NCBI GenBank assembly: GCA_029551285.1
Contig: JAKPFT010000087.1
Coordinates: 168 to 64,167, forward strand
DNA: 64,000 nt
Source of the DNA: a bacterium
GTDB taxonomy: Bacteria; Ratteibacteria; UBA8468; B48-G9; DSTR01
Direction of reading: 5' to 3'
The notes beneath the pieces are model-generated. The model saw only the letters and a program-made list of their open reading frames with translations. It was not told the origin of the DNA and did not search any database. Shown here piece by piece: positions 24,901 through 59,632 of the stretch. Both the position numbers and the translations under genes were made by a program. Numbering within the stretch: position 1 is the stretch's first letter; each line of letters begins with the position of its first letter.

Positions 24901-24916
24901 GGCTTTTCCCTGAAAA

Positions 24917-29847: not shown

Positions 29848-29862
29848 GGCACCTGCCCTCCT

Positions 29863-30261: not shown

Positions 30262-30301
30262 CCCCTGATTGTCAGGATAAACATTGTGGTCTCTGTCTTT
30301 C

Positions 30302-32185: not shown

Positions 32186-32330
32186 GGAAGGCTCCTTCGG
32201 TTGGCAGGGTTTCTGGCTCATTTTTCTATTGTTTTTAGCCGCACTTCACCTATGCTGCAATTTTACCCCGGCACACCCTTTTCTGTCAAGTCGCTTTTTT
32301 TAGACGCTAAAATACCCGCATAAAGGCATG

Positions 32331-36825: not shown

Positions 36826-36897
36826 CGGCACTCCTCCAGTTGACGTCAGTGGCCACCCTGATAAAATATACTGCGTCAGAGAAACAAAGTCAAGGCC

Positions 36898-40114: not shown

Positions 40115-42277
40115 ATGAAGAAGCGGATTAAACCCGACGGTATTGACCGGAAAGACTTAAGCGGCAGCCAGATTATCCTTCTAACGGTGCTTTTGGTGCT
40201 TGCTGGTTTTTTGCTTTACTGGCCTTCCATGAAAGGTCCCTTTGTTCTTGACGATTACCACTCCATTCTTTCTAACAGGGCTCTTCAGACATTCAATCCA
40301 GCCGCTCTCTGGAATTTCACCAGAACCCGCTTTCTGACTTATTTCACGCTGGCGGCTAACTGGCGTCTGTCAGGGGAAAAGACTTTCAGTTACCATCTGG
40401 TGAATGTAGCCATCCACCTTCTGGCCACTTTTTCTTTCTGGCTTCTGGTCACCCTTTTGTTAAGAACACCAGGATTGGAAAAGACAAAACCTGCTGGACC
40501 GCCGGTCTTAACCGGTCTTGTGGCGGCAGCAGTTTTCCTGGTTCACCCAGTGGCTACCCAGGCGGTCAGCTACCTTGTTCAGCGCGCTACTTCTCTGGCA
40601 ACCTTTTTTTATCTTACCAGTGTGGTTCTTTTCTTAAAATTTCGGATGGCTGAAGGTGCTCTTCGGAAAGGAAAATGGCGATGGTACCTGCTGGCCGTGC
40701 TGACCACCTGGGCGGCGATGTTCACCAAGGAAATCTGTTTTACGCTGCCGGTGATGATAGTGATGGTTGACCTTCTTACTTTCCCCGGGAAAAAGTGGCG
40801 AGGAAGAATTTTATGTTATCTCCCATTTCTTGTCTCTCTAAGTTTCATCCCACTACTGCTTGTTGCCACAAAGAACTTTAACCTGGGCGAGTTAGGCCGG
40901 GTGGCAGAGCCAGCCGGGGCTATTTCTCCCTGGCATTACCTTTGCACTCAGTTCCGGGTCCTGGTAACTTACCTTCGTCTCCTGATTCTTCCAATCAACC
41001 AGAACCTTGACTACCAGTACACGCTTTTTCGCAGTTTTTTCCATGTGCCGGTGGTGGCCAGTTTTATTCTGCTGTTGCTGGTGGCACTTGGTGGCATCTT
41101 TGCCTGGTGGCGGGGAAACCGGCTGGCTGGCCTGGCCGTTCTCTGGTTTTTTCTGACACTTTCTGTGGAATCAAGTTTTATTCCCATAAGTGACCTCATT
41201 TTTGAGCACCGGCTCTACCTGCCGCTGGCCGGCTATGCCATGGCGTTTGCTTCTGGTTTTTACTGGTGCCAGCGTGAAGGCAGCCGCAGACTGGCTAACC
41301 TAACTCTATTTCTGCTGATGATTCTTTATTCAAGCCTCACCCTTCAGCGAAACTTTCTCTGGGCAGACGATTTAAAACTCTGGCTGGACACCGCGGCCAG
41401 GAGTCCGAACAAAGCCCGCGTCCTTAACAACCTGGGTGCAGTTTACAACAACCGCCGCCAGTATCAGCAGGCCGTCCAGGTTCTGAGTCGGGGTCTTTTC
41501 TTCGCTCCGCGTTTTTATCCACTCTACCTCAACCGCGGTCGGGCCTTGATGGAATTAGGTGACACCCGGGCCGCCCTTTCTGATTTTCTTTCAGGGCTGG
41601 CTCTCCAGCCAGAAGCCGGTGATATTCATCTCAACATTGCGGTCCTTTATGCCCAGTTAGGCGATTATCAGAAAGCCCTGTACCATCATCAGCGCTCCAT
41701 TGAACTGCTGCCGGACAGCGCCACAGCCTACAACAACCGGGCTTCCACCTATACCCGGATGGGATATTACGACTTAGCCATCGCTGACTGCGAGAAAGCA
41801 CTTTCTCTCAACCCGAAACTGGCTGAGGCTTGTTTTAACTTAGCCAGTGCCTGGGAAGAGAAAGGGGACAGAGAAAGGGCAGTCAGGTACTACACCAGAG
41901 CCATTGAGGTCAAACCTGATTATTTTGACGCCTATACCAATCGCGGGACAACCTATCGTTTTCTGGGTCAGACCGAGAAAGCCCTCGCCGACTACAGCCG
42001 GGCGATTTCCCTGAAGCCTGATAATCCTGGTGCCTATAACAACCGGGGCAATATCTATCTGGAGCGTCGTGAATATCAACGAGCCATTCAAGATTATAAC
42101 CAGACCTTGAATCTTCAGCCGGCGCATGCGGTGGCTTACTTTAACCGGGCGGTAGCCTACTTCAACCTTAAGGATTACCGTCAGGCCGCCGAAGATGTCA
42201 GAAAGGCGCAGCAGTTAGGGCTGAAGGTGCCGGCTGACTTCCTCCAGTTGCTCTCCTCAGTCGGAGCCAATCCCTGA
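40115..42277 (+). CDS. TMTC/PMT-like GT-C membrane glycosyltransferase homolog (DUF1736/PMT_2-like N-terminal polytopic domain) with C-terminal TPR array
   Basis: 720 aa. About 11 TM helices with a conserved YHLVNVAIHL motif. Then about 9 TPR repeats (AYNNRG..Y. pattern). Paralog of the 56383..58965 gene. Confidence 0.7.
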   Translation: MKKRIKPDGIDRKDLSGSQIILLTVLLVLAGFLLYWPSMKGPFVLDDYHSILSNRALQTFNPAALWNFTRTRFLTYFTLAANWRLSGEKTFSYHLVNVAIHLLATFSFWLLVTLLLRTPGLEKTKPAGPPVLTGLVAAAVFLVHPVATQAVSYLVQRATSLATFFYLTSVVLFLKFRMAEGALRKGKWRWYLLAVLTTWAAMFTKEICFTLPVMIVMVDLLTFPGKKWRGRILCYLPFLVSLSFIPLLLVATKNFNLGELGRVAEPAGAISPWHYLCTQFRVLVTYLRLLILPINQNLDYQYTLFRSFFHVPVVASFILLLLVALGGIFAWWRGNRLAGLAVLWFFLTLSVESSFIPISDLIFEHRLYLPLAGYAMAFASGFYWCQREGSRRLANLTLFLLMILYSSLTLQRNFLWADDLKLWLDTAARSPNKARVLNNLGAVYNNRRQYQQAVQVLSRGLFFAPRFYPLYLNRGRALMELGDTRAALSDFLSGLALQPEAGDIHLNIAVLYAQLGDYQKALYHHQRSIELLPDSATAYNNRASTYTRMGYYDLAIADCEKALSLNPKLAEACFNLASAWEEKGDRERAVRYYTRAIEVKPDYFDAYTNRGTTYRFLGQTEKALADYSRAISLKPDNPGAYNNRGNIYLERREYQRAIQDYNQTLNLQPAHAVAYFNRAVAYFNLKDYRQAAEDVRKAQQLGLKVPADFLQLLSSVGANP

Positions 42278-45200
42278 TTACGGCGTGTCCGTGAGAGAAA
42301 GGGCCCGCCGGAGAATTCTAATCACATCAAGGATGGTGACCGCGCTGTCTTCGTCCAGGTCAGCCACCGCAGGCCTGGCCACTTCCAGACCCAGGGCCAT
42401 TCTCAGACACACCATCACATCAAGAATGTCAATGGTGTCGTCTCCGTTCAGGTCGGCTTTCCCGTTCCAGAGGACCGGCACCGGTACCAGTTTATCGGCG
42501 GTGTCACCACTGGCCCTGGGAGACAGTTGTCCCCAGAACCAGAGCGAGCCGTTAGCCTTCACGGCCAGGGTAGCACTTTCAGCCACAGAGACGCTCACCC
42601 AGTCAGTTTCCTGACCCACCCTCACCGGAACGACCCGGTCCACGCTGGAGCCATCGCCCAGCCGGCCATAGCCGTTGTGTCCCCAGGTCCAGAGAGAACC
42701 ATCTTTCTTCAACGCCGCGCTGTGGGCTTCGCCAGCCGAGATGGCTACCCAGTCGGCTCCGCTGAGCATCACCGGATAAGGCCGGTCCACAGTGGTCCCA
42801 TCACCTAACTGGCCGTACCAGTTAGAACCCCAGGCCCAGAGCGTGCCGTTGGTCTTAAGCGCTATGGTATAACTTGTTCCAGCCGAGATGGCCAGCCAGT
42901 CAGTATCAAAGCCGATACGCACCGGGCTGGGCCGGTCAAGGTAAGTACCGTCGCCTAACTGCCCGCAACTGTTGTCACCCCAGGCCCAGAGCGTGCCGTC
43001 GGCTTTAAGGGCCACGGTGTGGCGGCCACCAGCGGAAACAGCCTTCCAGTTGTTGGCAGTACCGACCTGCTGGGGTAGATGATGGCTGCTGATGCTGCCG
43101 TCACCTAACTGTCCGCAACTGTTATCGCCCCAGGTCCAGAGCGTCCCATCGCCTCTGATGGCGGCGCTGTGTTTTCTTCCGGCAGAGACAGCCTGCCAGA
43201 ACTGGCTGCTGATGAGAAGCGGTTGGTTTCTGCTGGCGGTGGAACCATCGCCTAACTGGCCACAGTCATTTTCACCCCAGGCCCAGAGGCTACCATCACT
43301 GGCAATAGCCAGGCTATGACTGGTTCCGGTGGAGACGCGGCTCCAGGTCTTCTCAGGCAGCACCGGCACCGGCTGGCTCTTGCTCACCGTGGAACCATCG
43401 CCCAGCTGGCCGGCGCTATTTTCGCCCCAGGTCCAGAGGGTGCCGTCAGCCTTGACAGCAGCAGCGTAACTGCCACCGCCTTTCGTGCTGCGCCAATCAG
43501 TGGCGATACCGACCTGGGTGGGCGTGCTCTTGCTGGTTCGGGTGCCATCGCCTAACTGACCATAAGCATTGCTTCCCCAGGCCCAGAGTGTTCCGTTGGT
43601 GCCGTCATAGCGCAGTCCGAGGGAGTGCTGTCCGCCAGCGGCAATGGAAACCCAGGTGTTTTCCAGTCCTACCCGGTTGGGCAATTTGTTCATGGTTTCG
43701 CTGTTGACATCTTCGGAGACGCCCAACTGGCCATAGGTGTTGTTACCCCAGGCCCAGAGGGTACCGTCTTTCTTAATGGCCAGGGTGTGAGCCCATCCGG
43801 CTTCCACATCCTGCCAGTTGGTATCACTGTTAACCTGGGTTGGAGTTGAGGCTGGCCCGGTGCCGCCGGTGCCTAACTGGCCGTAGTCGTTGGCGCCCCA
43901 GGCGTAAAGAAGACCATTGCTCTTGACCGCCACCGAGTGGTACCAGCCAGCAGTAATCTTTGCCCAGTTGGTTTCCGAACCTATCTTTCTGGGCAGATAG
44001 AAATCCGTGGAGCTGCTGGTCCGGCCTAACTGACCGTAGGCGTTGTTGCCCCAGGACCAGATTGTGCCGTCGCTCTTCATCGCCAGGGTGTGGAACCAGC
44101 CGCAGGCCACAGCCACCCAGTTATTCTCGGTGCCAATCCGCACCGGCGAGTACCGGGTGACCGTAGTTCCGTCACCTAACTGGCCATAACTGTTCTGACC
44201 CCAGGCCCAGAGAGACCCGTCAGACTTGAGAGCCACCGTATGAGCCGAGCCAGCAGAAACGGCTACCCAGTCGCTATCCAGACCAATCTGCACCGGTGTT
44301 AGCCTGTTGGTGGCTGTGCCATCGCCTAACTGACCGTAGTTGTTAGCGCCCCAGGCCCAGAGGGTCCCATCGGTCTTGATGGCCAGGGAGTGGGAATGAC
44401 CGGCGGCTACGAGGCTCCAGTTGGTGTCCGTGCCAATCTGTACCGGCACCAGGGCGTCGTTATTGGTGCCATCGCCAATCTGGCCGGAGTTATTGCGTCC
44501 CCAGGCCCAGAGGGTTCCGTTACGTTTAATCCCTAAGGAATGGAACTGGCCCGCGGCAATCTTGCCCGGCGCAAAGTTGGACGGACCGGAGGCTACGGAA
44601 ACAGTTACTGTGACCAGTTCTGTTTCGGTATAAGCGTCGTCATTGATTCTGACGGTTGCGGAATAACTTAGTCCAGGCACCAGGTTGGTCCGGTTCACAG
44701 TCACACTGACGGAAACTGGCTGGTCGCTGACAGTGCCATTGGCCGGCACGATACTGGTAATCCAGTCGGCTCCCTGCTGATAAATCACCGTGCTCAGCCA
44801 GGCAACAGAACCTGTGCCGGCATTAGCCAGGTTGAAACTCATGGTGTTGATGGTGGTGCCGAAATTGAGCGTGGCTGGATTAACCGTCAGGTTGGGCGTG
44901 ACCACCATGCGCACCGGTATGGTTCTCACCTGGCTTCCGGCAGTGACGGTGATGTCACTGTTGTAAGTGCCGACAGGTAGTCCCTGGCGGTTGACTTCCA
45001 CCACCACGGTATCCACTTCTGTAGTGGTCGTGCCGGAAGCCGGGCTAATACTGGTAATCCAGGCAGCGGTCCTGGTAATGTTCCAGTTCAGGGTTCCGCC
45101 GCCGGTATTTCTGATGTTTAACTGCAGACTGGTGAGACTTCTGTCAAAGTCAAGGCTATCCGGCGTGACCAAAAGTTCCGGTGAAGCCACGGCCATCATA

Positions 45201-48200
45201 ATGGTCACCGCGGTATTGTTGGCGTTGCTGGTTACCGGCAAAGCAGCAGTGTAGTTACCGGCACTCAGGCCGTTTCGGGAAACAGTGACCGTCACGGTGG
45301 TGGAACTTCCACCAGACAGCACTCCGTTGCTGGGCGAGGCGCTGACAACCCAGTTGTTTCCCTGCTGGTAGACGGCTGTGCCCAGTGACCAGTTCAGCAG
45401 ACCTGTTCCCGTATTGGTAATGGTGAAACTGGCCGTCTCGGTGGTGAAGCCAAAGTCAAGGGAAGCCGGCTGAACTGACAGGGCCGGGCCTACCAGAGAA
45501 AAACTGTTGCCCAGCAGATACTCACCGGAAAGATGAGCCGTCCCGGTTCCGGTAACAAACTTCAGTCCTTCACCGGTAGGCGAGGAGCAGATAGAACGGA
45601 TTTCGCCTCTGATGGTATCGCCTAAGGTGGCGACGGAATTTCCCTTGACCACGATGAAGAAGTAGGTTCCAGGGTTATCCGGAATCAGGGTATCGGCGTT
45701 GCTGGCAAAGGTCATCCGGACTCTGGTGGCATCAATCCAGGTAATACTGGTGGGTGTCACAAAGGTATCAGACTGGCTGGAGAAAACACCGTTACCGGTA
45801 TCCCGGTAAAGTGCCACGCCGCTGTCGCTGGTGATGCCCAGAGGTGCCAGGTCAGAGACGACATTGGTGCCGGTGAAGTAAACATTCACTTCCCGCAGGT
45901 AGTTGGCTTCCGCAGAGGTGCTATCGTAAGCGTGGATTCTGATGATGGCTTTCTGCTCTGACCTGGAGATGGTGTCGTTGGTGCTCACCAGATCCGTTAA
46001 AAAGACTGGCAGCCGGGCCGTAACCGCCCCTGTAGTAAGATTGGTGTCGCCGTAAGAGCGGCCAGCCGAGAAGACCAAGGCATTGGAAGGCAGGGACAAA
46101 CTAAAGCTATCCTTGTACTCCAGATTCTCGCCGGTCCGGAAGACAAGGAAGTAGGTCGGACCATTCTGACTGAAAGCAGTGGGTAATGGTTCCGGCGAGA
46201 CCAGGTTTAAGTCAATGTACCGGCCAAGGATAGTGCGGCCGCGGCCCAGGAAGTAAAGGCCTTCACCGCTGTCGTACTGGCCATTGCTGTTCCCATCACG
46301 ATAAGCAAAGCCATACTCTCCGGAGGAGACATCAATTCCGGTGGTGCCTGCGGTAACTGTTCCCGCCAGCAAAGTTTCGCCGTTATCGTATCTTTTGTTA
46401 CCGTTGGCGTCAACCCACAGGGCGTCGCCAGGGCTCCAGAAGCCATTGGCATCCTGGTCGTACCACGAGACTTTATCGCTGGCGGCAAAGAGGGAGAGCC
46501 GGCTTCCCTCAGGGGCTACCTGACCGGTAATGTAACCGCTGCTGTCTGACTGCCAGCCAGAGGAAGTTACCGGCACAAGCGTGTCTGTAGCCGGGTTGAA
46601 AATTCCGTCACCGTTGTCCCGCCACAGGGAAAGGCCGCTGCTTCTGGTGCTGGAAATTGAGGCTAAAGCCTGGCCTGGCGTGGGCAACGAGCCGGCTGGC
46701 GCCAGTGGATTGAAGTAAACCCGCAGACTGTTCAGGGTAGTATTGGCCGCAAGGTCGCAAACGCTGATGCCGATGGCTGCCACCGGGTCAGAAGTGGCGT
46801 CCACTCCGGTGCCATTGGGACCAATAAGGTCAGTCAGCACCAGAGGACTGAAGTAGGGATTACCGCTGATGACATTGGTGCTCAGTTTGGCGAAACTGAA
46901 GCCGTTGACCTTCAGCACCCTGACCTGGTCTCCACCGGCGACCCCGGCCGTGACAAAATTGGCGCCTGCGCAGGTGACCACTGTTCTGGTGTGGTCCACC
47001 GAAACAATCCGGTAAACCTTTCCGGCAGCTGCTCCGCTTTTTACCAGCAGGTACCAGTCCTGGGTGAAATCGTTGCCAGTATCATTCAGCGCTGCCGTGA
47101 GGGTTAATTTCTCCGGTTCCGGTCCTGCTGAAGCCACCACGGCTTCTTGGTAAAGTTTACTGGTGGGGTCAGCCGCGACCTTAGTTCCATAACCCACACC
47201 GTAACTGCGCAGCGGCTCAATATTGCTGCCGTGGATTCTCACCTGGAAAGTATCGCTGTCTTCCATACTGGCACTGGCCCGTAGCACCACAAAGAACGTG
47301 CTGCCGGTGGTTGACACCTGGGGTGGATTTTCCGGCTGAATGAGGAAGCGATAGTAGGGCTCATCACTCCGGGAAAGCGATGACGGCGCCACTACCGGCA
47401 CGACCAGCTGGTCTTCTTCGTCAAAGACACCGTTTTTGTTGCTGTCAGCGTAAAGCGCCAGACCGCTGTTTTTATCGCGGGTGAAGAAGGCTAAGTCAGA
47501 AAGGTTAAACCCGGTGCCCGGGATAAGATGGACCACCACACTCTGCAGGTAAACTGTCTCCACACCAGTTTCATCGCTGCTGTAAGCGGTAAACTTCATC
47601 ACGGCTGTCGGTGCCCCTGACGGGTTCATCCGCTGGCCGGCCCGGGTAAGGTCGCTCAAGAGTGTGGTGACATTGGCCACGATGGGCTGACTACCGTCTT
47701 TTTCCCGGTCAGCGTCAGAGTTTAGACCGCCAGCAGCCGAAGCGTGGCCGCTGATACTGACATCGGTGGCTCCGACACTCACCTGGATTTTGTCCTGATA
47801 CTTCAGGGTTGAGGAAGTTCTCAAGATAATGAAGTAGTCGTCTCCGCGGTTGGCTCCGGTATCGTTAGCCAGAACATTGCCGCTGACGGCAATGGCTGTT
47901 TCTGGCTGGACAATGCCGGTAAGTTTTCCGTTTTCGTAGACCCAGGAATGGCTGTGAATCGGGACAAAGATGTCGCTGGCATCAAAACTGCCAACCAGAC
48001 CCGCGGCCTTGTTGTCCCGGTAAAGCATCAAACCGGAAGGCACAACTGCGCCGGCCGGCGGCGTTCCTCCGGAGATAGGCAGAAAATCGCTGGCGCTTAG
48101 CCCGTCTCCAGAAAGCGTGACCTTGATGTAGTCTAATGTTTCCGTGGAATTTGTTCCGAAGGCCAGGTTAACACCGATAATCGGAATGTTGCTGCTTCTG

Positions 48201-51200
48201 GGGTCAATGTACCTGGCAGTTATGTCAGAGAGAGCAAAGACCAGCGGGGCAGCCGCCACTTTGCTTTCGGCAATGGAAAGAGCCTCTTTTGCTGCCTGGG
48301 GCACCTGGACAAAACTAATGTCGCCCTGTTTGATAAAGGTTTTGAAGCTGGCGCCGTAAGGCACATTATTCTGGCTCACCCGGACGACCACAAAGAAGTC
48401 GCTCCTGCCATCGCTGGTTGCTGGCAGGGCCGCGTTGGCCGCCGTAGCGTCAAGGTAGATGGTCAACGTGGTATTGTCGTCACCGTCTGTTCCCCAGGTA
48501 AACCCGTTCGTTCCCCGGGTAGCATCCACGGGAACAGCCGTATCAACCGCAGCGTCAAAAATTCCGTTGTTGTTGGTATCCGCATAGATAGCCACGCCGG
48601 ACTGTCCGGGGTTAACCGCATTCAGGGCAGTCAGGGTGGTCTTCGGGTCAAAGCGGCCGCCGCTGGTGTCCTTGAAGGTAACGGTGACACTATTTAGCAC
48701 TAACTCCTGGTAGGTGGCGAGGGCTTTCTGCACTCCGGCGTTGCCAGCGGCATCAATGCCTAACAGGGCTGTTGGCGTATCAATCGGCAGAACCATCGGC
48801 CGGCTGGTAAACTTAGTAAGGTTAGCCGTCTCGCCATCCAGGTTGTCGTCAGTGAGGTAATGCTGATACCGGTATCGGGTAATCAGGTCGGCATTATCCG
48901 CCAGCATCAGGTAGTTCTTTCCGGGTTCGCTCATCTCTTCCGGGATGGAGTAGTCAAAACCGGTCACGGAAACAAGGTCGTTGATGGCCGCTTCAGCGAC
49001 GATGGTGTTGGTGGTAGTTGTTCCGGCTGGCGTGTAAGGAGCGTCCACATCGTTGGTGGCGATGATGAAGTTACTCACTCCCACCGCAAAGCGCAGTCCG
49101 TAAGGTAATGCCGCAGTCGTCTTCAGTGCCAGGTAGTAGTCAGCGCCGGCCGAAGCGCCGGTATCGTCTGCGGGCAGGTCTTCCGGCGTGGTCAGGGTGC
49201 AGGTAGCAGTATAGACACCCGGGGCCGGTGAGGTCCAGGCCGAAAGTGTGGTTGCTACATTGTTGTCCAGGGCACTGAACCAGCCGTTATCCACCGGACT
49301 GTCGTCCCGGTAAACGGCCAGGGAGAAGAAAGTGTTAAGGGTATCGGTGTCAAAACTGACACTGTCAGTCAGGTCAACATCGGTGAAGGTAACATCAAAA
49401 GATTTCCACTTCCCTGGTGCCGTCGCTTCGGAGAAGATGTTAATTCCAAAAAGCGCCAGACCTCTGTCAGCGCTGTCCGGACCGTTGTTCGGAAGAACTC
49501 CCTGGTTAACTGCCGGATAAGCGGTAGCCGTCAAACCGCGGTTCACCGGAACCATTCTGGCGACCAGGGAGCGGTTAGCGTTCATGGTGATGACAATCGG
49601 GTTTTTGGTGGAACCTTCCACCGGCTCGTTGCTATTATCCAGGCCGCCGCCGCTCCAGGATGCGAAGACATAGCCAGCCGCGGGAACCGCGGTAATCGTG
49701 ACCGGTGTGAAACCGTCAGGATAGAAGCCCACCGGATAGGTAACCCCGCCGCTGGTAGGTTCAGCCTGGACCGAACCGCTGCCGGCAGGAGAAACAGACA
49801 GGGAAAGTTGCCGGTCGCCAGGATTGCCGGGAACAAAGTGGGCTTCTACGGTATGGCCCTGGTTCATGGTGATGGTAATGAACGGCTGGGTAACCGGGCT
49901 GTCCACTCCGTCCACAACCCACTTGCTGAACTGATTTCCGGCGTTGGCAGTGGCGGCGATGATGACCACTTCTCCCGCCTGCCGCCAGGCTGAACCAGAC
50001 GGCCAGACACTGCCACTTCCCACTGCGGTCACGGTCAACTGGTACTCGCTAATCCACTGCCAGGTGATGGTGGAATTCTGGTTGATGGTGAAAGTAACCA
50101 TGGTGCCGGTACCGGTGGCTGGCACACTGCCAGTGCCTGTCCATCCGGTGCAGACATACCTTGTTCCGCTGGGCGCGTTGGTGTCTGGAGAAGTCACCGA
50201 ACAGGTTACCTGCGCATCCCGGCCGTAGAAAGTGGTGCCTACCGGTGGCACCGGACTGTCATACAGCGAAGCCACGGTCAGGGAAATAAGCGTTCCGATC
50301 AAACTGCTGGTGGCGCGATACTCTTCGGAAGTTTCCGGAATTCCTGCAGGCGAAGAAAACTTCAAACCTTCGCCCTGCACGACAGAAAGTGAAGAACGGA
50401 TTTCCGCGGTGATAGTATTTCCTGAAGTAAGCACCTCGCTGGAGTGAAGCACGATGAAGTAGTCGTTTTTGTGTTCAGGGTCATCTGTATCTGGCACCGG
50501 CGCCGCACCGTCGGCAAACCTGATTCTCACCCGGTCGCTGCCGACATAGGAGATGGAAAGCGGCTGGACAAAAGTATCTGTGTTTCTGTCAAAAATTCCG
50601 TCGCCATTGTCCTTCCAGAGGCCTACGCCACTACTTGCGCCGGTGGAGAGGAAGGCCAGGTCTCCGAAAACATTGGTCCCGGTTAAGTAAAGATTCACTT
50701 CAGAGAAATAATGCTGGTGGGCCGGGATGGGATTTCCTGGTGGGTCTTCGTCTAACTGGTCGTCGTAAAGGTTAATACCGATGACTGCGTGGTACTCATC
50801 CTTGTAGATTCTGTCTCCAGCCTGCACTAAGTTGTTAAGGAATACTGGAATTCTGGCAGTAACGACGTTGGTGGTGAGGTTGGTGTTGGCGTAGGAATAA
50901 CCGGAGGAGTAAGTGACCGCATTGGCCGGCAGGGACAGACTGAACTGGTCGGTAAACTTGATTTTATCTCCGGTGCGGAAGGCGATGAAGAAGTCAGTCA
51001 GTCCGTTGTTGTCATTAGCCGGCACGGAAACTACAGGGCTCAGGTGTAAGTCGGCAAAGTAGCCTAAAACCTTTCTGCCCCTTCCTAAGAAGTAGATGTC
51101 TTCGCCGTCGTCCCAGACCCCGTCACTATCTTCATCGTAGTAAGCAAATCCATAAAGATTGTTGTGAAGCAGCACACCGTACTCGTTCCCGGTCAGACTT

Positions 51201-54200
51201 CCCTGATAGATGACGCTATCGGTGCCGGAAGTAAACCTTCTATCTCCATCCAGGTCCACCCAGAGACCGTCTCCGCTTGACCAGACACTGTCACCGTCAG
51301 CGTCATACCAGCAGACCTTATCCGAGGGCTTAAAGAAGGTAAGCTCTTGTCCGGCAGGAATCTCTGTTCTCGCGGCATGACCGCCAGAACCTGCCGTCGC
51401 TGTGCCGTCTCCGTCCACATATCCATCATCAAAATCTGAGCGCCAGCCAGCCACATTTATCGGCAGGAATCTATCGCTGCGCCAGTCAAACCGGCCATTG
51501 TTGTTGGCATCGGCCCACACAGAGAGACCGCTGCTGTTATTACCGGAAAGCGGCGCTAAAATTGTCTCCGGATGGGTATCCGGAGAAGTGCCAACAGGAT
51601 TGAAATACACCCTGACGCGGTTTAAGGTGTTGGCAGAAATTGCGTCATAAACATTGAGGCCAATCGCACCCACCGGGTCAGAAGTCGCATCCACTCTCTG
51701 GGAAGGAGTGACCAGGTTAGCCAGGATAGAAGTGCTTACCGTTTTATTGGTCAGGGTATTGGTCCTGATTTGCTTGTAAGGCTGACGCTGTCCGCCGGTG
51801 AAGGTAAACATAATTCCTTCCCCCTGCTCCAAGACATCGTCTGACCAGTGCCGGAAGGAAATGTCATCGCCTGACTCCATGGTGGAGCGCGGCTGAACGA
51901 CTAAGAAGTAGTCAATCCCTTCGTCATCGCCGGTATCGGTGGTGGGGATATCCGCCACCACTCCGTTGTCTGGATTGGTTTCAAACCAGAGATGGACAAT
52001 CCATGGTCCGTTAGGGTCTCCGGTAAATCCTGGATGGCTTTCCAGGGTGGGAACAGCCCGCATCGTCACCCGGCTATCCAGATTGTCAAATACTCCGGGT
52101 ATCAGTCCGTCGTCTTTGTAAAGAGCAATTCCGCAGCCACCGTTGGGGTCGTTACACTCCCCGACGGCATCTACAACATTGCTGATGGAAATAAAATCTG
52201 TGATGTCAAAGTTTCTGGTGCCGTCGTCAAGGATGTGGATTCTCAGGTCGCTGAGGTAGCAGGTAGTACCTGGCGGCGCCACCATGTTGTATCCGATGAC
52301 CGCGGTCTTCTGCTGGGGATTAATCGTCTGGCCAGCCTGGGTCAGGTCGGTGAAAAACACCGGCATAACTGTGGGGTAAGCACTGTGCACAGTTTTCACC
52401 GGGTCAATAGAAGCCTTCAGACCGCTACCAAACTGAATGTCTTCGTTCCCGCGGATAAAAGCCGTGACGACGTCTCCGGCATCAATACCCCTTTCCCACC
52501 AGTTGCTGGTATAACGTGCATCCTGGATACCTCTTCCCCGGACGCAGATGTAGTAGTCGTAACCGCGGTACTGGCCGGTCCACAGGTCGTCCGGGTAAAG
52601 CTGGATGGCTGTTTTCGGCTTGAGAATCACATAGTAAGACTTGTAGTATCGTTTGCCGCTACTGGGTTCAATGGCATCCGGTGGCTTGTTTGGATTGTAA
52701 TTGGGGTCATCTTGCTCCAGGCCGCCGGGGTCGTCGTTTTCCGGAGACCAGACTGTGCCGTCGTAGTTGTACCACTGAAGGCTGTCCGCAGAAAGCCGCA
52801 CGCAGGTATCCACCGGGTTGCTGCCGTAGCCGGTAAAGGAATGCATGCCCGGGATGAAAATCTGCGGCAGGCCCTTGGTGTCTGTCCCATAGGGAGCCGG
52901 CGTGTCCAGCCAGAGAGACACACCGGAATACGCGTTGTCAGAAAGCGGGGCTAAGTCTGTCGGCTTAAACCCGTTTGTTCCCTTAAACCAGACGCGGATC
53001 CACTCAAAGGTCTCGCTGTCTGAGTAAGCCGAGCCGTCCGCCGGATAATTGCTGTCGCACATGTTCATCGCCAAGATGGGGACCGGCCAGCCGTCAGGGT
53101 CCACCGGGTCTGTGGAACCGGTAATGCCGTCTTGCCAGTTGGAAGTCATCGGCGCTTCGGAAGCCACATACCAGGGTTCAATGGAAAAGACAGTTCTGGC
53201 TTCCTTGCACCCGTCCATGTCAGCCACCGGTACTGGCGGTAACGCGTTCAGGTCACCATTATTTCTACCAGACGGCTGGAAGTGTCGGTATAACTTTGAC
53301 CTGGTTCCAACATCGGCCAGTTGGGGTTTGGAGTTATCCTCATGAGCAGGGTTTGGCGTGCCATCAAGGTTTGACATGTGGCAGAACTGGATGAAGGAGT
53401 GCTCATCATCTGTGCTTTCTTCAATGTAGGCGCGGAAGTTCATTCCGTACTTCGGGGTTCTGGTGACCCACTGGTGGTCAGGCGCGGAAGAAATAGCGAT
53501 GAAATAATCTACATTGTCGTCACAAGTGGCTTCCAGTGGCAGGTTCTGAAAGTACATGGTCACCCGCCAGCGTGGCGGCCGGCTATGTCCGCGGTTCACC
53601 CAGATTACTCCGCCGTCAACTACCTTCTCGCCAATCTCCGTTGGCCAGTCAGGTTCAGCATTACCCGAATAGCCGCTTTCCAGGGGGTCAGGATAGGGTG
53701 CGCCAAAACCAACCACCTGAAGACACTCATAGACAAAACCGTTGTCGGTTGTGGGCTTAACATAGTCCCCTTTCCTGTAAAGAGTATTGGCGCTCCAGGC
53801 AGGAACATCCGGAACGACGCTCTCCCAGTTGTTGATGATGTGGCCGCCAGGCGCTGGCGGTCTTCTCAGGGTTGAATCTTCGGTCGCCCAAATGCAGGTA
53901 TCGGTTCTCCAGTCAAAGTTACCGTCGCCGGTGTCCTGATAGATGGCGATGTTGGGATGCGGCGCCATCGGATGGCTGGCTAACTTCCCGTAATCAAAGT
54001 CTTGCGGGTAGGTATCCTCAAAGGTCACCACCAGTTTGTAAAGTCTCTCCTGGCCATCATGCAGCGGGTCTAAAGCCACTCCGGCTAAGTCCAGCCCTAA
54101 CACCGGGTAGGGCGCGGTCAGCCTCATTACCTCCAATTCTTCTGGCCCGTAAGGATAGGCGTGGTCAGAGGCGCCAAACCAGTTATACGTCCACTGACTG

Positions 54201-55825
54201 TACAAGTAAGGACCGCCCTGACCACTGTCATTATTGCCCCAGCTGGGATAATCGTTCCACCACCGCGTCTGGGCTGCACCAACCGGAATACCGTGGCCCT
54301 GGTCGCTTCTTCTCGCGGTCATATCCACAATCCGCTGCTCACAGGTGACTGTATCAGTCCTCGTGGTTCCACCAACTGACTGCCGGTAAAGAGCAGTTCC
54401 GCCGAAGTTCCAGTCATTGGGATACTGAACACCCGGGTCAATGTCGTTTACGGTAATCATTGCCGGAGCCGGGTCCTCGGAATGGCCTAAAGCAAGTTGA
54501 AAGGTGTCTCCATGTTCCATCTTGCCGCTGGTGCGCACCACTATGTAAAACCGGCTTCCGTAAGTAGCGCTGATTAACTTGGTAAACCCGGAGAAAAGTA
54601 TTTCGGTCGTACCGTCATCCTCCCACTGTGCGGTAAACTCAGCAATCTTATAGTCAACACTAAAATCCGACGGGTCAAAAATTTTGGCAGTCAACGGGTC
54701 AGAATCGCTTGAGTCCCGGTAAAGAGCCACAGAAGCAATTGACCTGTTAGGCAGGGAACTAACCGAAGTCTGCGTCAGGTAGCATCTCACACTGGTAAGA
54801 TTCATTACATCAGGGTTGCCATAGCCGGTCTGCGTGGTGACATCAAAGTAAAGCACCGCGGTGCGACAACTCTTAGAAAGAATTCCCTGGTTCTGCACCG
54901 TCATCTTACCTGCGGTAATACTTACTCTGACGACGCGGATGGTGCCGCTGGAGATGTACGGCGGGTCTTGCCCAGGTTGTAGCGCAGGGGGCGGGCTGCC
55001 GAAGCTTGCCCCAATTTGGTAGACTCCGGGATCCCGGGCCTGGGTGTTCCATTCGTGCGACGTCGTTCCGGGCCCGAACGTCCCAATTGAGACCCAGCGA
55101 GAGCCCGGGGTTAGTATGTCCTTGTAGTAGAGGGTTGTGGAATGTGAAGGAAGGGGCGGGTGCCAGGTAATCTGGTAAATTCCGTCCTGCCTGGTTAACT
55201 CTCCGGCCAGGGATGGATTGATAATGCCAGCGCCAGGAAACTGCCAGACGATGGTCTGGCTGGTGTAACTGCCGGTGAAGTCGGGGGGATTGGGAACGGA
55301 GGACAAGGTGTAATTCCATCCGATTCTCGTTATTCGTAGCGTAAAATCGTCGTTGGCCTCTATATTTGAAGTATTCGCCATAATGACGATAAAGTAGGTG
55401 CAGGACCAGGTACCTGGCGGATTCTCCGTCCAGGTATTAACATATTCATCGGCAAAGTCAATGGTAACCTCAGAGCCAATAGCCGGGTTGTTAACCGTGC
55501 CGTTGGTCAGAACCGTATCGCCAGCGCCGAAGTTCCCATCTCCGTTGTCCCGGTAGATGGCGACACTGGCAATCTCTGTTGAATCCAGGTTAGGCACACC
55601 AACATCGTTAAACTGCACCAGAACAGACTGAAAAACATCACCTGAGTTATCCGACTGAAGGTCCAGTTTGAAAACAGCCATGGGGTTTCTTGCCGGAGTC
55701 CAGGGGGTGAGGGAAATATCCGTACTGGTGCCGGTAATCGTCGCCTGACAGTTGGCCTTTAGTATCAGGAGAAAAAGTACTCCTGACCACAACCCTATCC
55801 TGAAGCGGTTAATTTTGCCTGTCAT
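42278..55825 (-). CDS. Giant secreted protein (4515 aa): large internally duplicated Thr/Ser-rich region, divergent InlB B-repeat, three BACON-like domains, about 14 or more RCC1 repeats, C-terminal dockerin-like domain
   Basis: Signal peptide MTGKINRFRIGLWSGVLFLLILKANCQA. Paralogous ~900-aa segments (for example GRGRKVLGYFADLHL... versus GRGRTILGRYIDLNL...). BACON-like LxFxxxxxTxSFxIxNxGxGxLNWxx units. GQLGDGT-type RCC1 blades. Terminal DLNGDDTIDILDVMVCLRMALG...DLDEDSAVTILDVIRILRRA. Confidence 0.7.
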   Translation of the reverse strand: MTGKINRFRIGLWSGVLFLLILKANCQATITGTSTDISLTPWTPARNPMAVFKLDLQSDNSGDVFQSVLVQFNDVGVPNLDSTEIASVAIYRDNGDGNFGAGDTVLTNGTVNNPAIGSEVTIDFADEYVNTWTENPPGTWSCTYFIVIMANTSNIEANDDFTLRITRIGWNYTLSSVPNPPDFTGSYTSQTIVWQFPGAGIINPSLAGELTRQDGIYQITWHPPLPSHSTTLYYKDILTPGSRWVSIGTFGPGTTSHEWNTQARDPGVYQIGASFGSPPPALQPGQDPPYISSGTIRVVRVSITAGKMTVQNQGILSKSCRTAVLYFDVTTQTGYGNPDVMNLTSVRCYLTQTSVSSLPNRSIASVALYRDSSDSDPLTAKIFDPSDFSVDYKIAEFTAQWEDDGTTEILFSGFTKLISATYGSRFYIVVRTSGKMEHGDTFQLALGHSEDPAPAMITVNDIDPGVQYPNDWNFGGTALYRQSVGGTTRTDTVTCEQRIVDMTARRSDQGHGIPVGAAQTRWWNDYPSWGNNDSGQGGPYLYSQWTYNWFGASDHAYPYGPEELEVMRLTAPYPVLGLDLAGVALDPLHDGQERLYKLVVTFEDTYPQDFDYGKLASHPMAPHPNIAIYQDTGDGNFDWRTDTCIWATEDSTLRRPPAPGGHIINNWESVVPDVPAWSANTLYRKGDYVKPTTDNGFVYECLQVVGFGAPYPDPLESGYSGNAEPDWPTEIGEKVVDGGVIWVNRGHSRPPRWRVTMYFQNLPLEATCDDNVDYFIAISSAPDHQWVTRTPKYGMNFRAYIEESTDDEHSFIQFCHMSNLDGTPNPAHEDNSKPQLADVGTRSKLYRHFQPSGRNNGDLNALPPVPVADMDGCKEARTVFSIEPWYVASEAPMTSNWQDGITGSTDPVDPDGWPVPILAMNMCDSNYPADGSAYSDSETFEWIRVWFKGTNGFKPTDLAPLSDNAYSGVSLWLDTPAPYGTDTKGLPQIFIPGMHSFTGYGSNPVDTCVRLSADSLQWYNYDGTVWSPENDDPGGLEQDDPNYNPNKPPDAIEPSSGKRYYKSYYVILKPKTAIQLYPDDLWTGQYRGYDYYICVRGRGIQDARYTSNWWERGIDAGDVVTAFIRGNEDIQFGSGLKASIDPVKTVHSAYPTVMPVFFTDLTQAGQTINPQQKTAVIGYNMVAPPGTTCYLSDLRIHILDDGTRNFDITDFISISNVVDAVGECNDPNGGCGIALYKDDGLIPGVFDNLDSRVTMRAVPTLESHPGFTGDPNGPWIVHLWFETNPDNGVVADIPTTDTGDDEGIDYFLVVQPRSTMESGDDISFRHWSDDVLEQGEGIMFTFTGGQRQPYKQIRTNTLTNKTVSTSILANLVTPSQRVDATSDPVGAIGLNVYDAISANTLNRVRVYFNPVGTSPDTHPETILAPLSGNNSSGLSVWADANNNGRFDWRSDRFLPINVAGWRSDFDDGYVDGDGTATAGSGGHAARTEIPAGQELTFFKPSDKVCWYDADGDSVWSSGDGLWVDLDGDRRFTSGTDSVIYQGSLTGNEYGVLLHNNLYGFAYYDEDSDGVWDDGEDIYFLGRGRKVLGYFADLHLSPVVSVPANDNNGLTDFFIAFRTGDKIKFTDQFSLSLPANAVTYSSGYSYANTNLTTNVVTARIPVFLNNLVQAGDRIYKDEYHAVIGINLYDDQLDEDPPGNPIPAHQHYFSEVNLYLTGTNVFGDLAFLSTGASSGVGLWKDNGDGIFDRNTDTFVQPLSISYVGSDRVRIRFADGAAPVPDTDDPEHKNDYFIVLHSSEVLTSGNTITAEIRSSLSVVQGEGLKFSSPAGIPETSEEYRATSSLIGTLISLTVASLYDSPVPPVGTTFYGRDAQVTCSVTSPDTNAPSGTRYVCTGWTGTGSVPATGTGTMVTFTINQNSTITWQWISEYQLTVTAVGSGSVWPSGSAWRQAGEVVIIAATANAGNQFSKWVVDGVDSPVTQPFITITMNQGHTVEAHFVPGNPGDRQLSLSVSPAGSGSVQAEPTSGGVTYPVGFYPDGFTPVTITAVPAAGYVFASWSGGGLDNSNEPVEGSTKNPIVITMNANRSLVARMVPVNRGLTATAYPAVNQGVLPNNGPDSADRGLALFGINIFSEATAPGKWKSFDVTFTDVDLTDSVSFDTDTLNTFFSLAVYRDDSPVDNGWFSALDNNVATTLSAWTSPAPGVYTATCTLTTPEDLPADDTGASAGADYYLALKTTAALPYGLRFAVGVSNFIIATNDVDAPYTPAGTTTTNTIVAEAAINDLVSVTGFDYSIPEEMSEPGKNYLMLADNADLITRYRYQHYLTDDNLDGETANLTKFTSRPMVLPIDTPTALLGIDAAGNAGVQKALATYQELVLNSVTVTFKDTSGGRFDPKTTLTALNAVNPGQSGVAIYADTNNNGIFDAAVDTAVPVDATRGTNGFTWGTDGDDNTTLTIYLDATAANAALPATSDGRSDFFVVVRVSQNNVPYGASFKTFIKQGDISFVQVPQAAKEALSIAESKVAAAPLVFALSDITARYIDPRSSNIPIIGVNLAFGTNSTETLDYIKVTLSGDGLSASDFLPISGGTPPAGAVVPSGLMLYRDNKAAGLVGSFDASDIFVPIHSHSWVYENGKLTGIVQPETAIAVSGNVLANDTGANRGDDYFIILRTSSTLKYQDKIQVSVGATDVSISGHASAAGGLNSDADREKDGSQPIVANVTTLLSDLTRAGQRMNPSGAPTAVMKFTAYSSDETGVETVYLQSVVVHLIPGTGFNLSDLAFFTRDKNSGLALYADSNKNGVFDEEDQLVVPVVAPSSLSRSDEPYYRFLIQPENPPQVSTTGSTFFVVLRASASMEDSDTFQVRIHGSNIEPLRSYGVGYGTKVAADPTSKLYQEAVVASAGPEPEKLTLTAALNDTGNDFTQDWYLLVKSGAAAGKVYRIVSVDHTRTVVTCAGANFVTAGVAGGDQVRVLKVNGFSFAKLSTNVISGNPYFSPLVLTDLIGPNGTGVDATSDPVAAIGISVCDLAANTTLNSLRVYFNPLAPAGSLPTPGQALASISSTRSSGLSLWRDNGDGIFNPATDTLVPVTSSGWQSDSSGYITGQVAPEGSRLSLFAASDKVSWYDQDANGFWSPGDALWVDANGNKRYDNGETLLAGTVTAGTTGIDVSSGEYGFAYRDGNSNGQYDSGEGLYFLGRGRTILGRYIDLNLVSPEPLPTAFSQNGPTYFLVFRTGENLEYKDSFSLSLPSNALVFSAGRSYGDTNLTTGAVTARLPVFLTDLVSTNDTISRSEQKAIIRIHAYDSTSAEANYLREVNVYFTGTNVVSDLAPLGITSDSGVALYRDTGNGVFSSQSDTFVTPTSITWIDATRVRMTFASNADTLIPDNPGTYFFIVVKGNSVATLGDTIRGEIRSICSSPTGEGLKFVTGTGTAHLSGEYLLGNSFSLVGPALSVQPASLDFGFTTETASFTITNTGTGLLNWSLGTAVYQQGNNWVVSASPSNGVLSGGSSTTVTVTVSRNGLSAGNYTAALPVTSNANNTAVTIMMAVASPELLVTPDSLDFDRSLTSLQLNIRNTGGGTLNWNITRTAAWITSISPASGTTTTEVDTVVVEVNRQGLPVGTYNSDITVTAGSQVRTIPVRMVVTPNLTVNPATLNFGTTINTMSFNLANAGTGSVAWLSTVIYQQGADWITSIVPANGTVSDQPVSVSVTVNRTNLVPGLSYSATVRINDDAYTETELVTVTVSVASGPSNFAPGKIAAGQFHSLGIKRNGTLWAWGRNNSGQIGDGTNNDALVPVQIGTDTNWSLVAAGHSHSLAIKTDGTLWAWGANNYGQLGDGTATNRLTPVQIGLDSDWVAVSAGSAHTVALKSDGSLWAWGQNSYGQLGDGTTVTRYSPVRIGTENNWVAVACGWFHTLAMKSDGTIWSWGNNAYGQLGRTSSSTDFYLPRKIGSETNWAKITAGWYHSVAVKSNGLLYAWGANDYGQLGTGGTGPASTPTQVNSDTNWQDVEAGWAHTLAIKKDGTLWAWGNNTYGQLGVSEDVNSETMNKLPNRVGLENTWVSIAAGGQHSLGLRYDGTNGTLWAWGSNAYGQLGDGTRTSKSTPTQVGIATDWRSTKGGGSYAAAVKADGTLWTWGENSAGQLGDGSTVSKSQPVPVLPEKTWSRVSTGTSHSLAIASDGSLWAWGENDCGQLGDGSTASRNQPLLISSQFWQAVSAGRKHSAAIRGDGTLWTWGDNSCGQLGDGSISSHHLPQQVGTANNWKAVSAGGRHTVALKADGTLWAWGDNSCGQLGDGTYLDRPSPVRIGFDTDWLAISAGTSYTIALKTNGTLWAWGSNWYGQLGDGTTVDRPYPVMLSGADWVAISAGEAHSAALKKDGSLWTWGHNGYGRLGDGSSVDRVVPVRVGQETDWVSVSVAESATLAVKANGSLWFWGQLSPRASGDTADKLVPVPVLWNGKADLNGDDTIDILDVMVCLRMALGLEVARPAVADLDEDSAVTILDVIRILRRALSLTDTP

Positions 55826-55838
55826 AGATTTCCTCCGG

Positions 55839-55875
55839 AAAAAAAGGACTGGCCCTGTAGAAAGGCCAGTCCTGG
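55839..55875 (-). terminator. Intrinsic-terminator-like hairpin (10-bp perfect stem plus U7 on the minus strand) ending about 2 nt before the RBS of the giant gene; candidate attenuator
   Basis: Plus strand AAAAAAA-GGACTGGCC-ctgtagaaa-GGCCAGTCC. Read on the minus strand this is a stem-loop followed by UUUUUUU, then CCGGAGG (RBS) and the ATG. Coordinates approximate. Confidence 0.4.
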
Positions 55876-58965: not shown

Positions 58966-59632
58966 AAAGAAGAGCGTCCTTTGCTTGCCAGGAGCGGAGA
59001 AAATTCAGGTAGGACAAACCTTTTGTTAGGGAGATGTGTTTCTCTATCACCGGCCAATCAAGAATAGGAGCGCAATTCTCACGCTGGAGATAATCAGGCA
59101 GGCTTGACCAGCGATAATTCTTGAGAAATTGTTCCGCTTTTTCCCAGTTTGCCACTCCCTTTTCCTTCCAGTCAGGTAGCAGTAGATTGAGCGGATTGAG
59201 GTGGATGTATCTGGTGAGGTGGAGTAAATACTCATCGGTTTGAACTTCCTTAACCTTATACCTGCCGTCAAAAAGCACGCCGGTTCTCTCGTAGCGCTCG
59301 TTGAAGTACATGGCGTGCGCCGTGCAGATCTTGCGCAGAAACTTGATAATCCCCCCTTCCCTTTTCTCGCATAACAACAGGTGAAAATGGTTGGGCATAA
59401 GGCAGTAACAGACGATGGAAACAAGGGGTTGCCTTTCCGGAAATTTCCTGAGAGCCGGGGTCTGACTGGCTGCCCGAATCACTGAGGCCGGTCGTTCATC
59501 GTTAAGAGTTAGAAGGGACTGCTGAAATCTGCGATAGTCACGGCTATGGAGAAAGATTTCCCGCTTGTCCACACCCCGGCTGTAGAGATGGTAAAAACCG
59601 CCGCTGGAGAAGAATACTTTTCTGTAAGGCAT
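58949..59632 (-). CDS. HUH/Y1 transposase-like protein (IS200/IS605 TnpA or REP-associated tyrosine transposase family)
   Basis: 227 aa. HUH motif (MPNHFHLLL) and a downstream conserved Tyr region (DGRYK). GAGGAGA RBS. The 3' end overlaps the convergent TMTC-like gene by 17 nt. Confidence 0.55.
   Translation of the reverse strand: MPYRKVFFSSGGFYHLYSRGVDKREIFLHSRDYRRFQQSLLTLNDERPASVIRAASQTPALRKFPERQPLVSIVCYCLMPNHFHLLLCEKREGGIIKFLRKICTAHAMYFNERYERTGVLFDGRYKVKEVQTDEYLLHLTRYIHLNPLNLLLPDWKEKGVANWEKAEQFLKNYRWSSLPDYLQRENCAPILDWPVIEKHISLTKGLSYLNFLRSWQAKDALLFKTHP

Follow-up and report, generated by a model that had tools for sequence, protein, structure and literature searches.

The 64,000 nucleotides considered here (positions 168 to 64,167 of contig JAKPFT010000087.1, GenBank assembly GCA_029551285.1, from a bacterium of the lineage Ratteibacteria; hereafter the window) contain one long gene on the minus strand, at 42278..55825. 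An original prediction had described its product as a secreted protein with a large internal duplication and a C-terminal region of BACON, RCC1 and dockerin-like domains. Here we report that the gene encodes a real, conserved secreted protein that is under strong purifying selection over its whole length, and that about 76% of the chain is a string of repeated modules, which we treat as an uncurated domain family.

A single conserved reading frame

The gene and its export signal lie as follows:

42278..55825 (-): whole gene, encoding a secreted multidomain protein of 4515 aa; stop codon at 42278-42280
55742..55825 (-): signal peptide, residues 1-28, with predicted cleavage after CQA; read from the sequence

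As originally predicted, the open reading frame (ORF) is single and unbroken, comprising 4515 codons plus the stop. It opens with an ATG, and a GGAGGA Shine-Dalgarno site lies 6 nt upstream. The predicted signal peptide held up equally well: the N-terminus (MTGKINRFRIGLWSGVLFLLILKANCQA, with T following the cleavage site), as read from the sequence, has a basic n-region, a 13-residue hydrophobic core and small residues at -3/-1, and equivalent N-termini are found in two orthologs, P0022 and L003. A Kyte-Doolittle scan found no membrane segment in the protein, with the sole exception of a hydrophobic helix within the dockerin-like tail. The protein is identical to an NCBI entry encoded on a contig of 64,583 bp and is already public as an unnamed protein.

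Although the gene is split over contigs of 1-7 kb in three short-read metagenome-assembled genomes (MAGs), a pattern that an assembly artefact or a decaying pseudogene read as one ORF could produce, such an origin is vanishingly improbable. Nine fragments from these three other MAGs, which are third-party annotation (TPA) records with locus tags PKW42, PK644 and PKX93, together with a Joint Genome Institute (JGI) contig, cover residues 341-4515 at 98.6-100% identity with zero gaps. One 2358-aa fragment runs across residues 1340-3697 and thereby spans both copies of the duplicated block described below, and the JGI contig (Ga0116245_10012941, L001) is 99.87% identical to the window at the DNA level, without indels. 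Furthermore, a separate metagenome (contig Ga0136652_1000169, L003) encodes a full-length, collinear ortholog of 4469 aa with 68.7% identity. Between the two genes, the proportion of synonymous differences (pS) is ~0.75 and saturated, whereas that of nonsynonymous differences (pN) is 0.13-0.26 along the gene outside the first 500 codons. No near-identical DNA repeats were found inside the gene; its DNA-level repeats comprise the 150-nt periodicity of the RCC1 blades (60-82% identity) and faint traces of an old duplication at an offset of 4800-4890 nt, and nothing else. The frameshifts or repeat collapse that might have undone the prediction are therefore not seen. Plus-strand ORFs inside the gene, such as 51992-52954, were treated as spurious because the minus-strand ORF is constrained along its full length.

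A string of uncurated modules and the domains around it

Residues 35-3425 consist of 13 copies of a module of ~170 aa, interrupted mid-way by InlB B-repeats. The original prediction had overlooked this array and taken the N-terminal 3440 aa as one duplication only. Module boundaries were set with a hidden Markov model (HMM) built from three copies, which recovered 13 regions in its first pass (i-Evalues down to 1e-14), followed by iteration and MAFFT alignment, and with a family profile (A1):

55307..55723 (-): module M1, residues 35-173; own-HMM iteration and A1 profile
54461..54925 (-): module M2, residues 301-455; own-HMM iteration and A1 profile
53336..54142 (-): module M3, residues 562 to ~830 (end approximate), with an insert at ~686-756
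52406..53146 (-): module M4, residues 894 to ~1140 (end approximate), with an insert
51800..52366 (-): module M5, residues 1154-1342; HMM/profile match
50885..51736 (-): module M6, residues 1364-1647, split by an acidic insert of ~80 aa; HMM/profile match
50351..50851 (-): module M7, residues 1659-1825; HMM/profile match
49049..49495 (-): module M8, residues 2111-2259; HMM/profile match
48299..48829 (-): module M9, residues 2333-2509; HMM/profile match
47735..48244 (-): module M10, residues 2528-2697; HMM/profile match
47183..47671 (-): module M11, residues 2719-2881; HMM/profile match
46046..46849 (-): module M12, residues 2993-3260, split by an M6-like acidic insert; HMM/profile match
45551..46012 (-): module M13, residues 3272-3425; HMM/profile match

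Only the first halves of M3 and M4 were placed by profile match; the second half of M3 (DYFIAISS) and its insert were read from the sequence, and the second half of M4 was inferred from the motif YYVILKPK. All 13 copies fall within the module family as defined by profiles A1 and A5. The module consensus, xGINxxD ... DLAxL ... SGxxLYxDxxxxGxFDxxxD ... PxxDxxxxGxDxFxVxRTS ... GDxF, holds over 35 diverse family members. Each module carries two acidic motifs, namely an EF-hand/dockerin-type loop, SGvaLYxDxNxNGxFDxxxD, and PxxDxGxxxGxDYF. The aspartate following [YW]x is invariant in all 15 aligned module pieces, and the spacing of the acidic loop, as read from the sequence, is that of an EF-hand or dockerin calcium loop. 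Loop insertions occur in M3, M4, M6 and M12; in M6 and M12 they are acidic, with many motifs of the DxDxDG type.

The M3 insert (53558-53770, minus strand; residues 686-756) bears a motif resembling carbohydrate-binding module families 5 and 12 (CBM5/12), Y..GD.V.P....G..Y.C...G.SG..EP.WP...G..V.DG.V.W. Three copies of this motif lie in the core block of the giant protein of a more distant locus (L004, about residues 1230-1400), where Pfam CBM_5_12 scored 17.5 bits, below threshold.

We next asked whether the module belongs to a known domain family. For the whole protein, Pfam gave no module match at E<=1 and placed no curated model on residues 1-1850 or 2100-3430; NCBIfam added nothing further above threshold. 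Scans of single modules (15 pieces from the window and 35 modules of the family alignment) returned only sub-threshold matches to GEVED (PF20009), in 3 of the 15 and 3 of the 35, respectively. GEVED is the only curated family that recurs among the weak matches, and it covers the [YW]xDxNxNGxFD loop of the module; a fragment of one relative (P0151) bears a precomputed GEVED tag. However, GEVED spans 78 positions against ~170 aa for the module, and its best score, 18.3 bits for M9 over profile positions 2-51, lies below the cut-off of 24.4, the other matches in the window reaching 13.7-14.1 bits over positions 2-16 or 2-26. With so few modules matched, and each to part of the profile, membership in GEVED was rejected. 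The loop of the family profile also aligns, below threshold, to an FG-GAP-like repeat, and in profile searches of the PDB the matches nearest to significance were a NigD-like protein (E=0.07) and a Ruminococcus dockerin calcium loop (5m2s, E=0.1).

An AlphaFold2 model of M7, built from an alignment of the 15 paralogous pieces, is a beta-sandwich with a predicted local distance difference test score (pLDDT) of 77.5 and a predicted TM-score (pTM) of 0.78; a model of M6 and M7 together reached a pLDDT of 56 with the acidic insert unresolved and was not used. A Foldseek search of the M7 model against the PDB gave nothing at E<=0.001. The best matches were TTHA1873, several cohesins and the staphylococcal adhesins SdrD and ClfA, at TM-scores of 0.3-0.4; those to cohesins lay at 0.31-0.39 with E>=0.02. 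Cohesin (PF00963) gave no Pfam match to single modules at E<=10 and none in the PDB profile searches, and a cohesin identity was rejected for want of either a sequence-profile match or a close fold match. Because curated matches are lacking and fold matches are weak, we regard it as an uncurated family of its own, distinct from cohesin and GEVED, whose sandwich is of a generic jelly-roll or immunoglobulin (Ig)-like type.

One pair of segments within the array stands out. Chunked self-BLAST of the protein gave a single strong internal pair, and its other self-matches are weaker (23-30% identity), reflecting the repeat module:

50264..51937 (-): duplication copy A, residues 1297-1854 (tail of M5, M6 and M7)
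45458..47083 (-): duplication copy B, residues 2915-3456 (M12 and M13)

Direct BLAST aligned the two copies over ~560 aa at 40.6% identity (E=1.7e-111). The paralogous strings quoted in the original prediction do occur, one pair at residues 1581-1595 / 3196-3210 and the other at 1709-1745 / 3311-3347. The duplication itself thus stands, and its proposed size and tandem arrangement do not: outside the two segments, similarity falls to the 23-28% of any module pair, which rules out the ~900 aa originally proposed, and ~1060 aa separate the copies, which rules out a tandem. In L003, each copy has its own ortholog (A to A' 70.5%, B to B' 70.4%), whereas A and B are about 42% identical; the more distant relatives P0001, P0008, P0010, P0011 and L004 have a single copy of the block. 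Since both copies are orthologously conserved in L003 and the distant relatives are single-copy, a recent origin was ruled out, and comparison of these sequences identifies the duplication as one old event within the module array that is older than the split between the window and L003 and specific to this sub-lineage.

Outside the modules, four regions resemble curated domains:

49556..50263 (-): three divergent InlB B-repeats, residues 1855-2090; Pfam Flg_new_2 and sequence
44588..45517 (-): three BACON-type Ig-like domains, residues 3437-3746; Pfam BACON_2
42491..44578 (-): 14 RCC1 blades, residues 3750-4445; Pfam and motif count
42281..42490 (-): dockerin-like tail, residues 4446-4515, with the two loops DLNGDDTIDILD and DLDEDSAVTILD

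Flg_new_2 (PF18998) scored 51.1 bits against a cut-off of 23.6 in two stretches, the best at 1928-1999, and the third repeat was read from the sequence. An InlB B-repeat had been predicted in the C-terminal quarter; the domain is present and lies mid-protein instead, at a position conserved in L003 and P0001. The three predicted BACON-like domains were recovered as three stretches of BACON_2 (PF19190; 78.3 bits against 25), a cut-off also passed in L003 and L004, and the same region gave a HYDIN/VesB-like Ig match of 29.4 bits. RCC1 (PF00415) scored 491.8 bits against 21.7 in 13 Pfam stretches, and WD40_RLD (PF25390) 659.1 against 150. In agreement with the prediction of at least 14 blades, we counted 14 [WY]xWG motifs at ~50-aa spacing, sufficient for two seven-bladed propellers; the RCC1 part makes up 15% of the protein.

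The tail resembles a type I dockerin only in part. Its loops DLNGDDTIDILD and DLDEDSAVTILD (D-x-[ND]-x-D...D), each followed by a hydrophobic helix, agree with the dockerin rule of D/N at positions 1, 3, 5, 9 and 12 in two tandem loop-helix segments, position 9 of the second loop being T. Dockerin_1 (PF00404), by contrast with the other three Pfam calls, remained below its cut-off in the giant protein (18.4 bits against 22.9), and exceeded it in the tail of the 69%-identical L003 ortholog (23.2 bits). The tail is also the most constrained part of the protein, with a pN of 0.126.

Relatives, termini and a putative surface fibre

An exhaustive profile search over 1.84 billion cluster representatives identified 713 members of the module family at E<=1e-3, 395 at E<=1e-10 and 100 at E<=1e-30, and the proteins reach 7445 aa and as many as 25 matched stretches. 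Word-prefiltered homolog searches with the duplicated block and with a seven-sequence family alignment had returned 0 matches, which is not evidence of absence because the exhaustive search found relatives at 40-75% identity; the prefilter was presumably swamped. A scan of species-representative genomes gave only a weak match in an Anaerolineae MAG (35% identity).

Among the close relatives are the fragments P0026 (74% identical over residues 3010-4515) and P0022 (65% over residues 27-1279). P0011 and P0012 (45-46% identity) share the layout of module, BACON, RCC1 and dockerin, and BACON, RCC1 and the dockerin tail are common to P0011, P0012 and P0026; the JGI name of the P0011 cluster is 'alpha-tubulin suppressor-like'. 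The domain combination is rare, as predicted: module, BACON, RCC1 and dockerin occur together in 3 of the 150 best family representatives. The closest named relative of the module string is P0001, a protein of 3593 aa from a Candidatus Omnitrophota MAG (46% identity over ~1700 aa), which has the same modules with B-repeats mid-protein but ends in a C-terminal CFI-box-CTERM sorting domain (81.4 bits against 40). The same sorting domain closes 32 of the 150 best representatives, a further ending of hydrophobic helix plus basic tail is found in 29, and a dockerin, as detected with a small home-made HMM, in 4. Because relatives end in CFI-box-CTERM or in a hydrophobic helix with a basic tail, the C-terminus is the end that bears the anchoring signal across the family, and this lineage has swapped a membrane anchor for BACON-RCC1-dockerin.

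The opposite end of the protein evolves differently:

54326..55741 (-): hypervariable N-terminal tip, residues 29-500 (M1, M2 and linkers)

In all three pairwise comparisons of the window, L003 and P0022, the first ~500 residues are 30-50% identical, against 70-84% beyond, and pN in the tip region is 0.45. A fast-evolving end opposite the anchor would fit the exposed tip of a surface fibre.

Taken together, we judge it modestly probable that the giant protein is a calcium-stiffened surface fibre, tethered by its C-terminus and bearing a hypervariable N-terminal tip. On this model, the protein would be exported through Sec by its N-terminal signal, and the 13 beta-sandwich modules would be strung into an extended stalk whose acidic loops most likely bind calcium and stiffen the chain. 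The three InlB B-repeats would break the stalk, and three BACON-type Ig domains would follow it. The 14 RCC1 blades, as a double propeller, would form a candidate binding head near the base of the fibre, the dockerin-like tail would hold the C-terminus by non-covalent binding to a cell-surface partner, and the N-terminal 500 residues would be the distal, outward-facing and fastest-evolving tip. The analysis establishes the ORF and its conservation, the domain calls, the array of 13 modules, the family with its C-terminal anchors and the variable tip; calcium binding, stalk rigidity, orientation, dockerin tethering and the adhesive role are inferred. Every domain of the protein with a curated match is of an extracellular type. 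The 'cell-surface binding platform' of the original prediction fits in so far as a signal peptide, the absence of transmembrane segments, extracellular domains and a dockerin-like tail are all present; its basis in the C-terminal quarter proved too narrow.

Several points weigh against the fibre. The Dockerin_1 score of its own tail is sub-threshold, and neither the window nor any related locus yielded a cohesin. The RCC1 propellers come without a defined extracellular ligand, and the argument for orientation is comparative, not direct. Finally, the fold matches of the module are weak (TM-score about 0.38, none at E<=0.001), which makes its fold class tentative.

The sub-threshold tail and the lack of a detected partner would also suit a protein that is released and untethered, either a matrix or biofilm fibre or an attachment factor for prey or host, in which the tail is one more calcium-binding element. 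The Omnitrophota origin of the closest named relative is in keeping with such a role: for giant extracellular proteins in that phylum, an action on the surfaces of hosts or prey has been suggested (bioRxiv 10.1101/2023.11.21.568195). We nevertheless consider release unlikely: the tail is the most constrained part of the protein and passes the Pfam cut-off in the L003 ortholog, and the corresponding position in relatives is occupied by bona fide C-terminal anchoring signals, which speaks for attachment of the family to the cell by this end.

Gene neighbourhood and comparison with known systems

The genes and features that flank the giant gene are as follows:

40115..42277 (+): convergent neighbour, 720 aa, with multiple membrane segments and C-terminal tetratricopeptide repeats (TPRs); the 'TMTC-like' gene
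55832..55873 (-): 5' leader, in which a 12-bp GC-rich hairpin with T7 (55873-55845) precedes the ribosome-binding site GGAGGA (55837-55832)
56383..58965 (+): divergent neighbour, paralogous to the 720-aa protein; listed as an ORF from 56041, with ATG 56383 as the likely start
59731..62535 (-): secreted PD40 beta-propeller protein of 934 aa

As originally noted, the giant gene abuts its convergent neighbour: its stop codon at 42278-42280 follows the neighbour's stop, which ends at 42277, with 0 intergenic bases, and the same arrangement is present in the independent contig L001. The facing gene in L003 is a PD40-VWA gene, and there too the convergent TPR gene runs right up to the opposing stop codon (17856/17857), with zero intergenic bases.

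At the other end, a terminator-like hairpin followed by seven T (55845-55873, minus strand) stops 19 nt short of the start codon of the giant gene. Immediately upstream of the hairpin there is no gene in the same direction; the adjoining gene is divergent, and the nearest minus-strand gene ends ~3 kb away. At the equivalent position, L003 has a 7-bp hairpin without a T-run, and Rfam gave no family match in the window or in the leader. The hairpin could be an attenuator or an mRNA-stabilising stem.

The two bracketing TPR proteins are 37.6% identical to each other, and both have counterparts in L003, one 65% identical to the convergent neighbour at the same place relative to the locus and one upstream of the ortholog. 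Both have at least 7 hydrophobic segments, an FxxDDYHSI loop (GPFVLDDYHSI / VPFTFDDYHSI) and 6-11 C-terminal TPRs, in agreement with the TMTC/GT-C architecture of membrane segments, acidic loop motif and TPRs. Their membrane parts, however, have no match in Pfam (E<=0.1), in NCBIfam (TPR models aside) or in the PDB (E<=10), and neither PMT_2, TMTC_DUF1736 nor a GT-C structure was matched. The label 'TMTC-like' therefore holds as an architectural resemblance only.

Metazoan TMTC enzymes O-mannosylate cadherin domains. By analogy, the bracketing proteins could be GT-C O-glycosyltransferases that modify the beta-sandwich modules, and the conservation between the window and L003 of the whole bracket, together with a methyltransferase and a glycosyltransferase of family 4 (GT4) after the convergent gene, invites this idea, as do the hydrophobic segments, loop motif and TPRs of the two proteins. 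We regard such a glycoprotein system as very unlikely given that their membrane parts lack any sequence-model or PDB match, that the bracket is absent from the more distant loci L004, L005, L006 and L007, and that the window and L003 are close enough for inherited synteny without a functional link.

Every BACON-RCC1 relative seen with context has as a neighbour a secreted PD40/TolB-like propeller protein (L003 14440-17856; L004 16074-19319; L006 7807-11190; L007 9076-10470), which is 930-1140 aa long and shares 31-52% identity with the window copy. In L003, L006 and L007, its gene comes immediately downstream of the giant gene; in L004, it follows a DDE transposase that separates the two. In the window, it lies instead 3.9 kb upstream of the giant gene, beside an IS200-like (Y1) transposase (58949-59632, minus strand) that stands between it and the giant-gene locus and may explain its displacement relative to the other four loci. 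The four complete copies (window, L003, L004 and L006) have a W-rich motif in common at their C-termini, and those of the window, L003 and L004 carry an acidic 'D.D..I.D.DLLY.I..W' stretch resembling half a dockerin. The context of P0001 in its Omnitrophota MAG (L005, GCA_043797665.1, 20919-26883) is unlike that of the window: genes for ExbB, ExbD and TonB come before P0001, and secreted S8 and M4 peptidases are encoded after it.

Further along the window, a run of genes for secreted or surface proteins occupies 23707-37008 (minus strand). Besides a 397-aa chitobiase-C-domain protein with a dockerin (23710-24900, 23.9 bits) and a 210-aa protein with a sub-threshold dockerin (24920-25549, 16.4 bits), it encodes another chitobiase-C-domain protein, a protein of 1436 aa that contains three InlB B-repeats, one of 542 aa without a match and a PQQ-propeller protein of 945 aa that has a Kre9-like Ig domain. 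The gene for a GspC-like PDZ protein lies at 22892-23710. The window also encodes a B12-dependent ribonucleotide reductase and, at 2769-8292 (minus strand), acetyl-CoA decarbonylase/synthase and anaerobic CO dehydrogenase, named after identical NCBI proteins. Because of these acetyl-CoA synthase/CO dehydrogenase genes, the host, an uncultured anaerobe, probably has the Wood-Ljungdahl pathway.

The dockerin tails bear on another explanation, in which the modules are functional analogues of cohesins that recruit dockerin-tailed secreted proteins, and the giant protein's own dockerin fixes the assembly to the cell. Two more dockerin-tailed proteins are encoded in the window and one in L006 (26.9 bits), no Pfam cohesin was found that could otherwise serve them, and repeated modules followed by a C-terminal dockerin amount to a scaffoldin-like layout. 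Among the best Foldseek matches of the module, moreover, are ten cohesins (3ul4_A, Foldseek probability 0.96; 1anu, 0.91) besides TTHA1873. Such a platform nonetheless seems unlikely to us. The TM-scores of these matches reach only 0.31-0.39, none passes E<=0.001, and cohesin was absent from the Pfam matches of the whole protein (E<=1) and of single modules (E<=10) as well as from PDB profile searches. The most conserved feature of the module is its calcium loop, and to our knowledge cohesins carry no such loop. Most family members, in addition, lack a dockerin context and end in membrane anchors.

A bolder and rather unlikely proposal would combine these elements. The module would represent an unrecognised class of giant envelope proteins, found in Omnitrophota-like and other uncultured bacteria, which here forms the receptor side of a non-canonical dockerin system. 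The modules would receive the dockerin-like tails of co-encoded secreted proteins (the PD40 propeller, the chitobiase-domain protein and also the giant protein) to build a surface assembly, which the TMTC-like proteins may glycosylate.

To place the surface fibre that we favour among known systems, we compared it with described giant proteins. Giant Gram-negative adhesins such as MpIBP, LapA and SiiE leave the cell by type I secretion, directed by a signal at the C-terminus, and consist of BIg or cadherin-like repeats. The protein resembles these RTX/BIg calcium-dependent adhesins in its thousands of residues, its repeated beta-sandwich extender with acidic calcium-type loops, its candidate non-repeat binding domains near one end and its putative attachment by one terminus, and differs from them in its Sec signal, its dockerin-like tail and a module without a Pfam, NCBIfam or PDB match. 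With the cellulosomal scaffoldins CipA and ScaA it shares repeated beta-sandwich modules followed by a C-terminal dockerin, and cohesins among the best weak structural matches; unlike them, it has no cohesin signature, a conserved calcium-type loop, TM-scores below 0.4 and no carbohydrate-active enzyme context that we could see. Its C-terminal 700 aa are canonical RCC1 blades, as in bacterial RCC1-repeat proteins, although in the Oscillospiraceae giants of this type described in the literature RCC1 is the single repeating domain over the whole length, against 15% here. The 'dockerin-type' giants of Omnitrophota, for which a role in attachment has been proposed, are chains of 30,000 aa or more that contain numerous dockerin and TSP3 repeats and have transmembrane regions at the C-terminus (West-Roberts et al. 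2023, bioRxiv 10.1101/2023.11.21.568195). Like them, the protein is predicted to be extracellular and bears dockerin/EF-hand-type loops, and the closest named relative of its stalk is in Omnitrophota; it differs in having 4515 aa, a single terminal dockerin-like tail, no TSP3 repeats and another repeat module. Further giant extracellular proteins of Omnitrophota, similar in kind, have been described (bioRxiv 10.64898/2026.06.07.730766).

In summary, the protein is of a rather ordinary type among giant surface proteins, and its building block is new; as far as the libraries and literature searched show, both the module family and the swapping of anchors are undescribed. Very large surface proteins are the main interface of uncultured and often host-dependent bacteria, and most of their sequence is unannotated. 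The module now has a usable definition, with boundaries, a consensus, a profile and a model, and curating it would annotate many megabases of 'dark' coding sequence. Moreover, a search for a cohesin-independent dockerin receptor could start concretely from the conserved PD40 propeller and the dockerin-tailed proteins.

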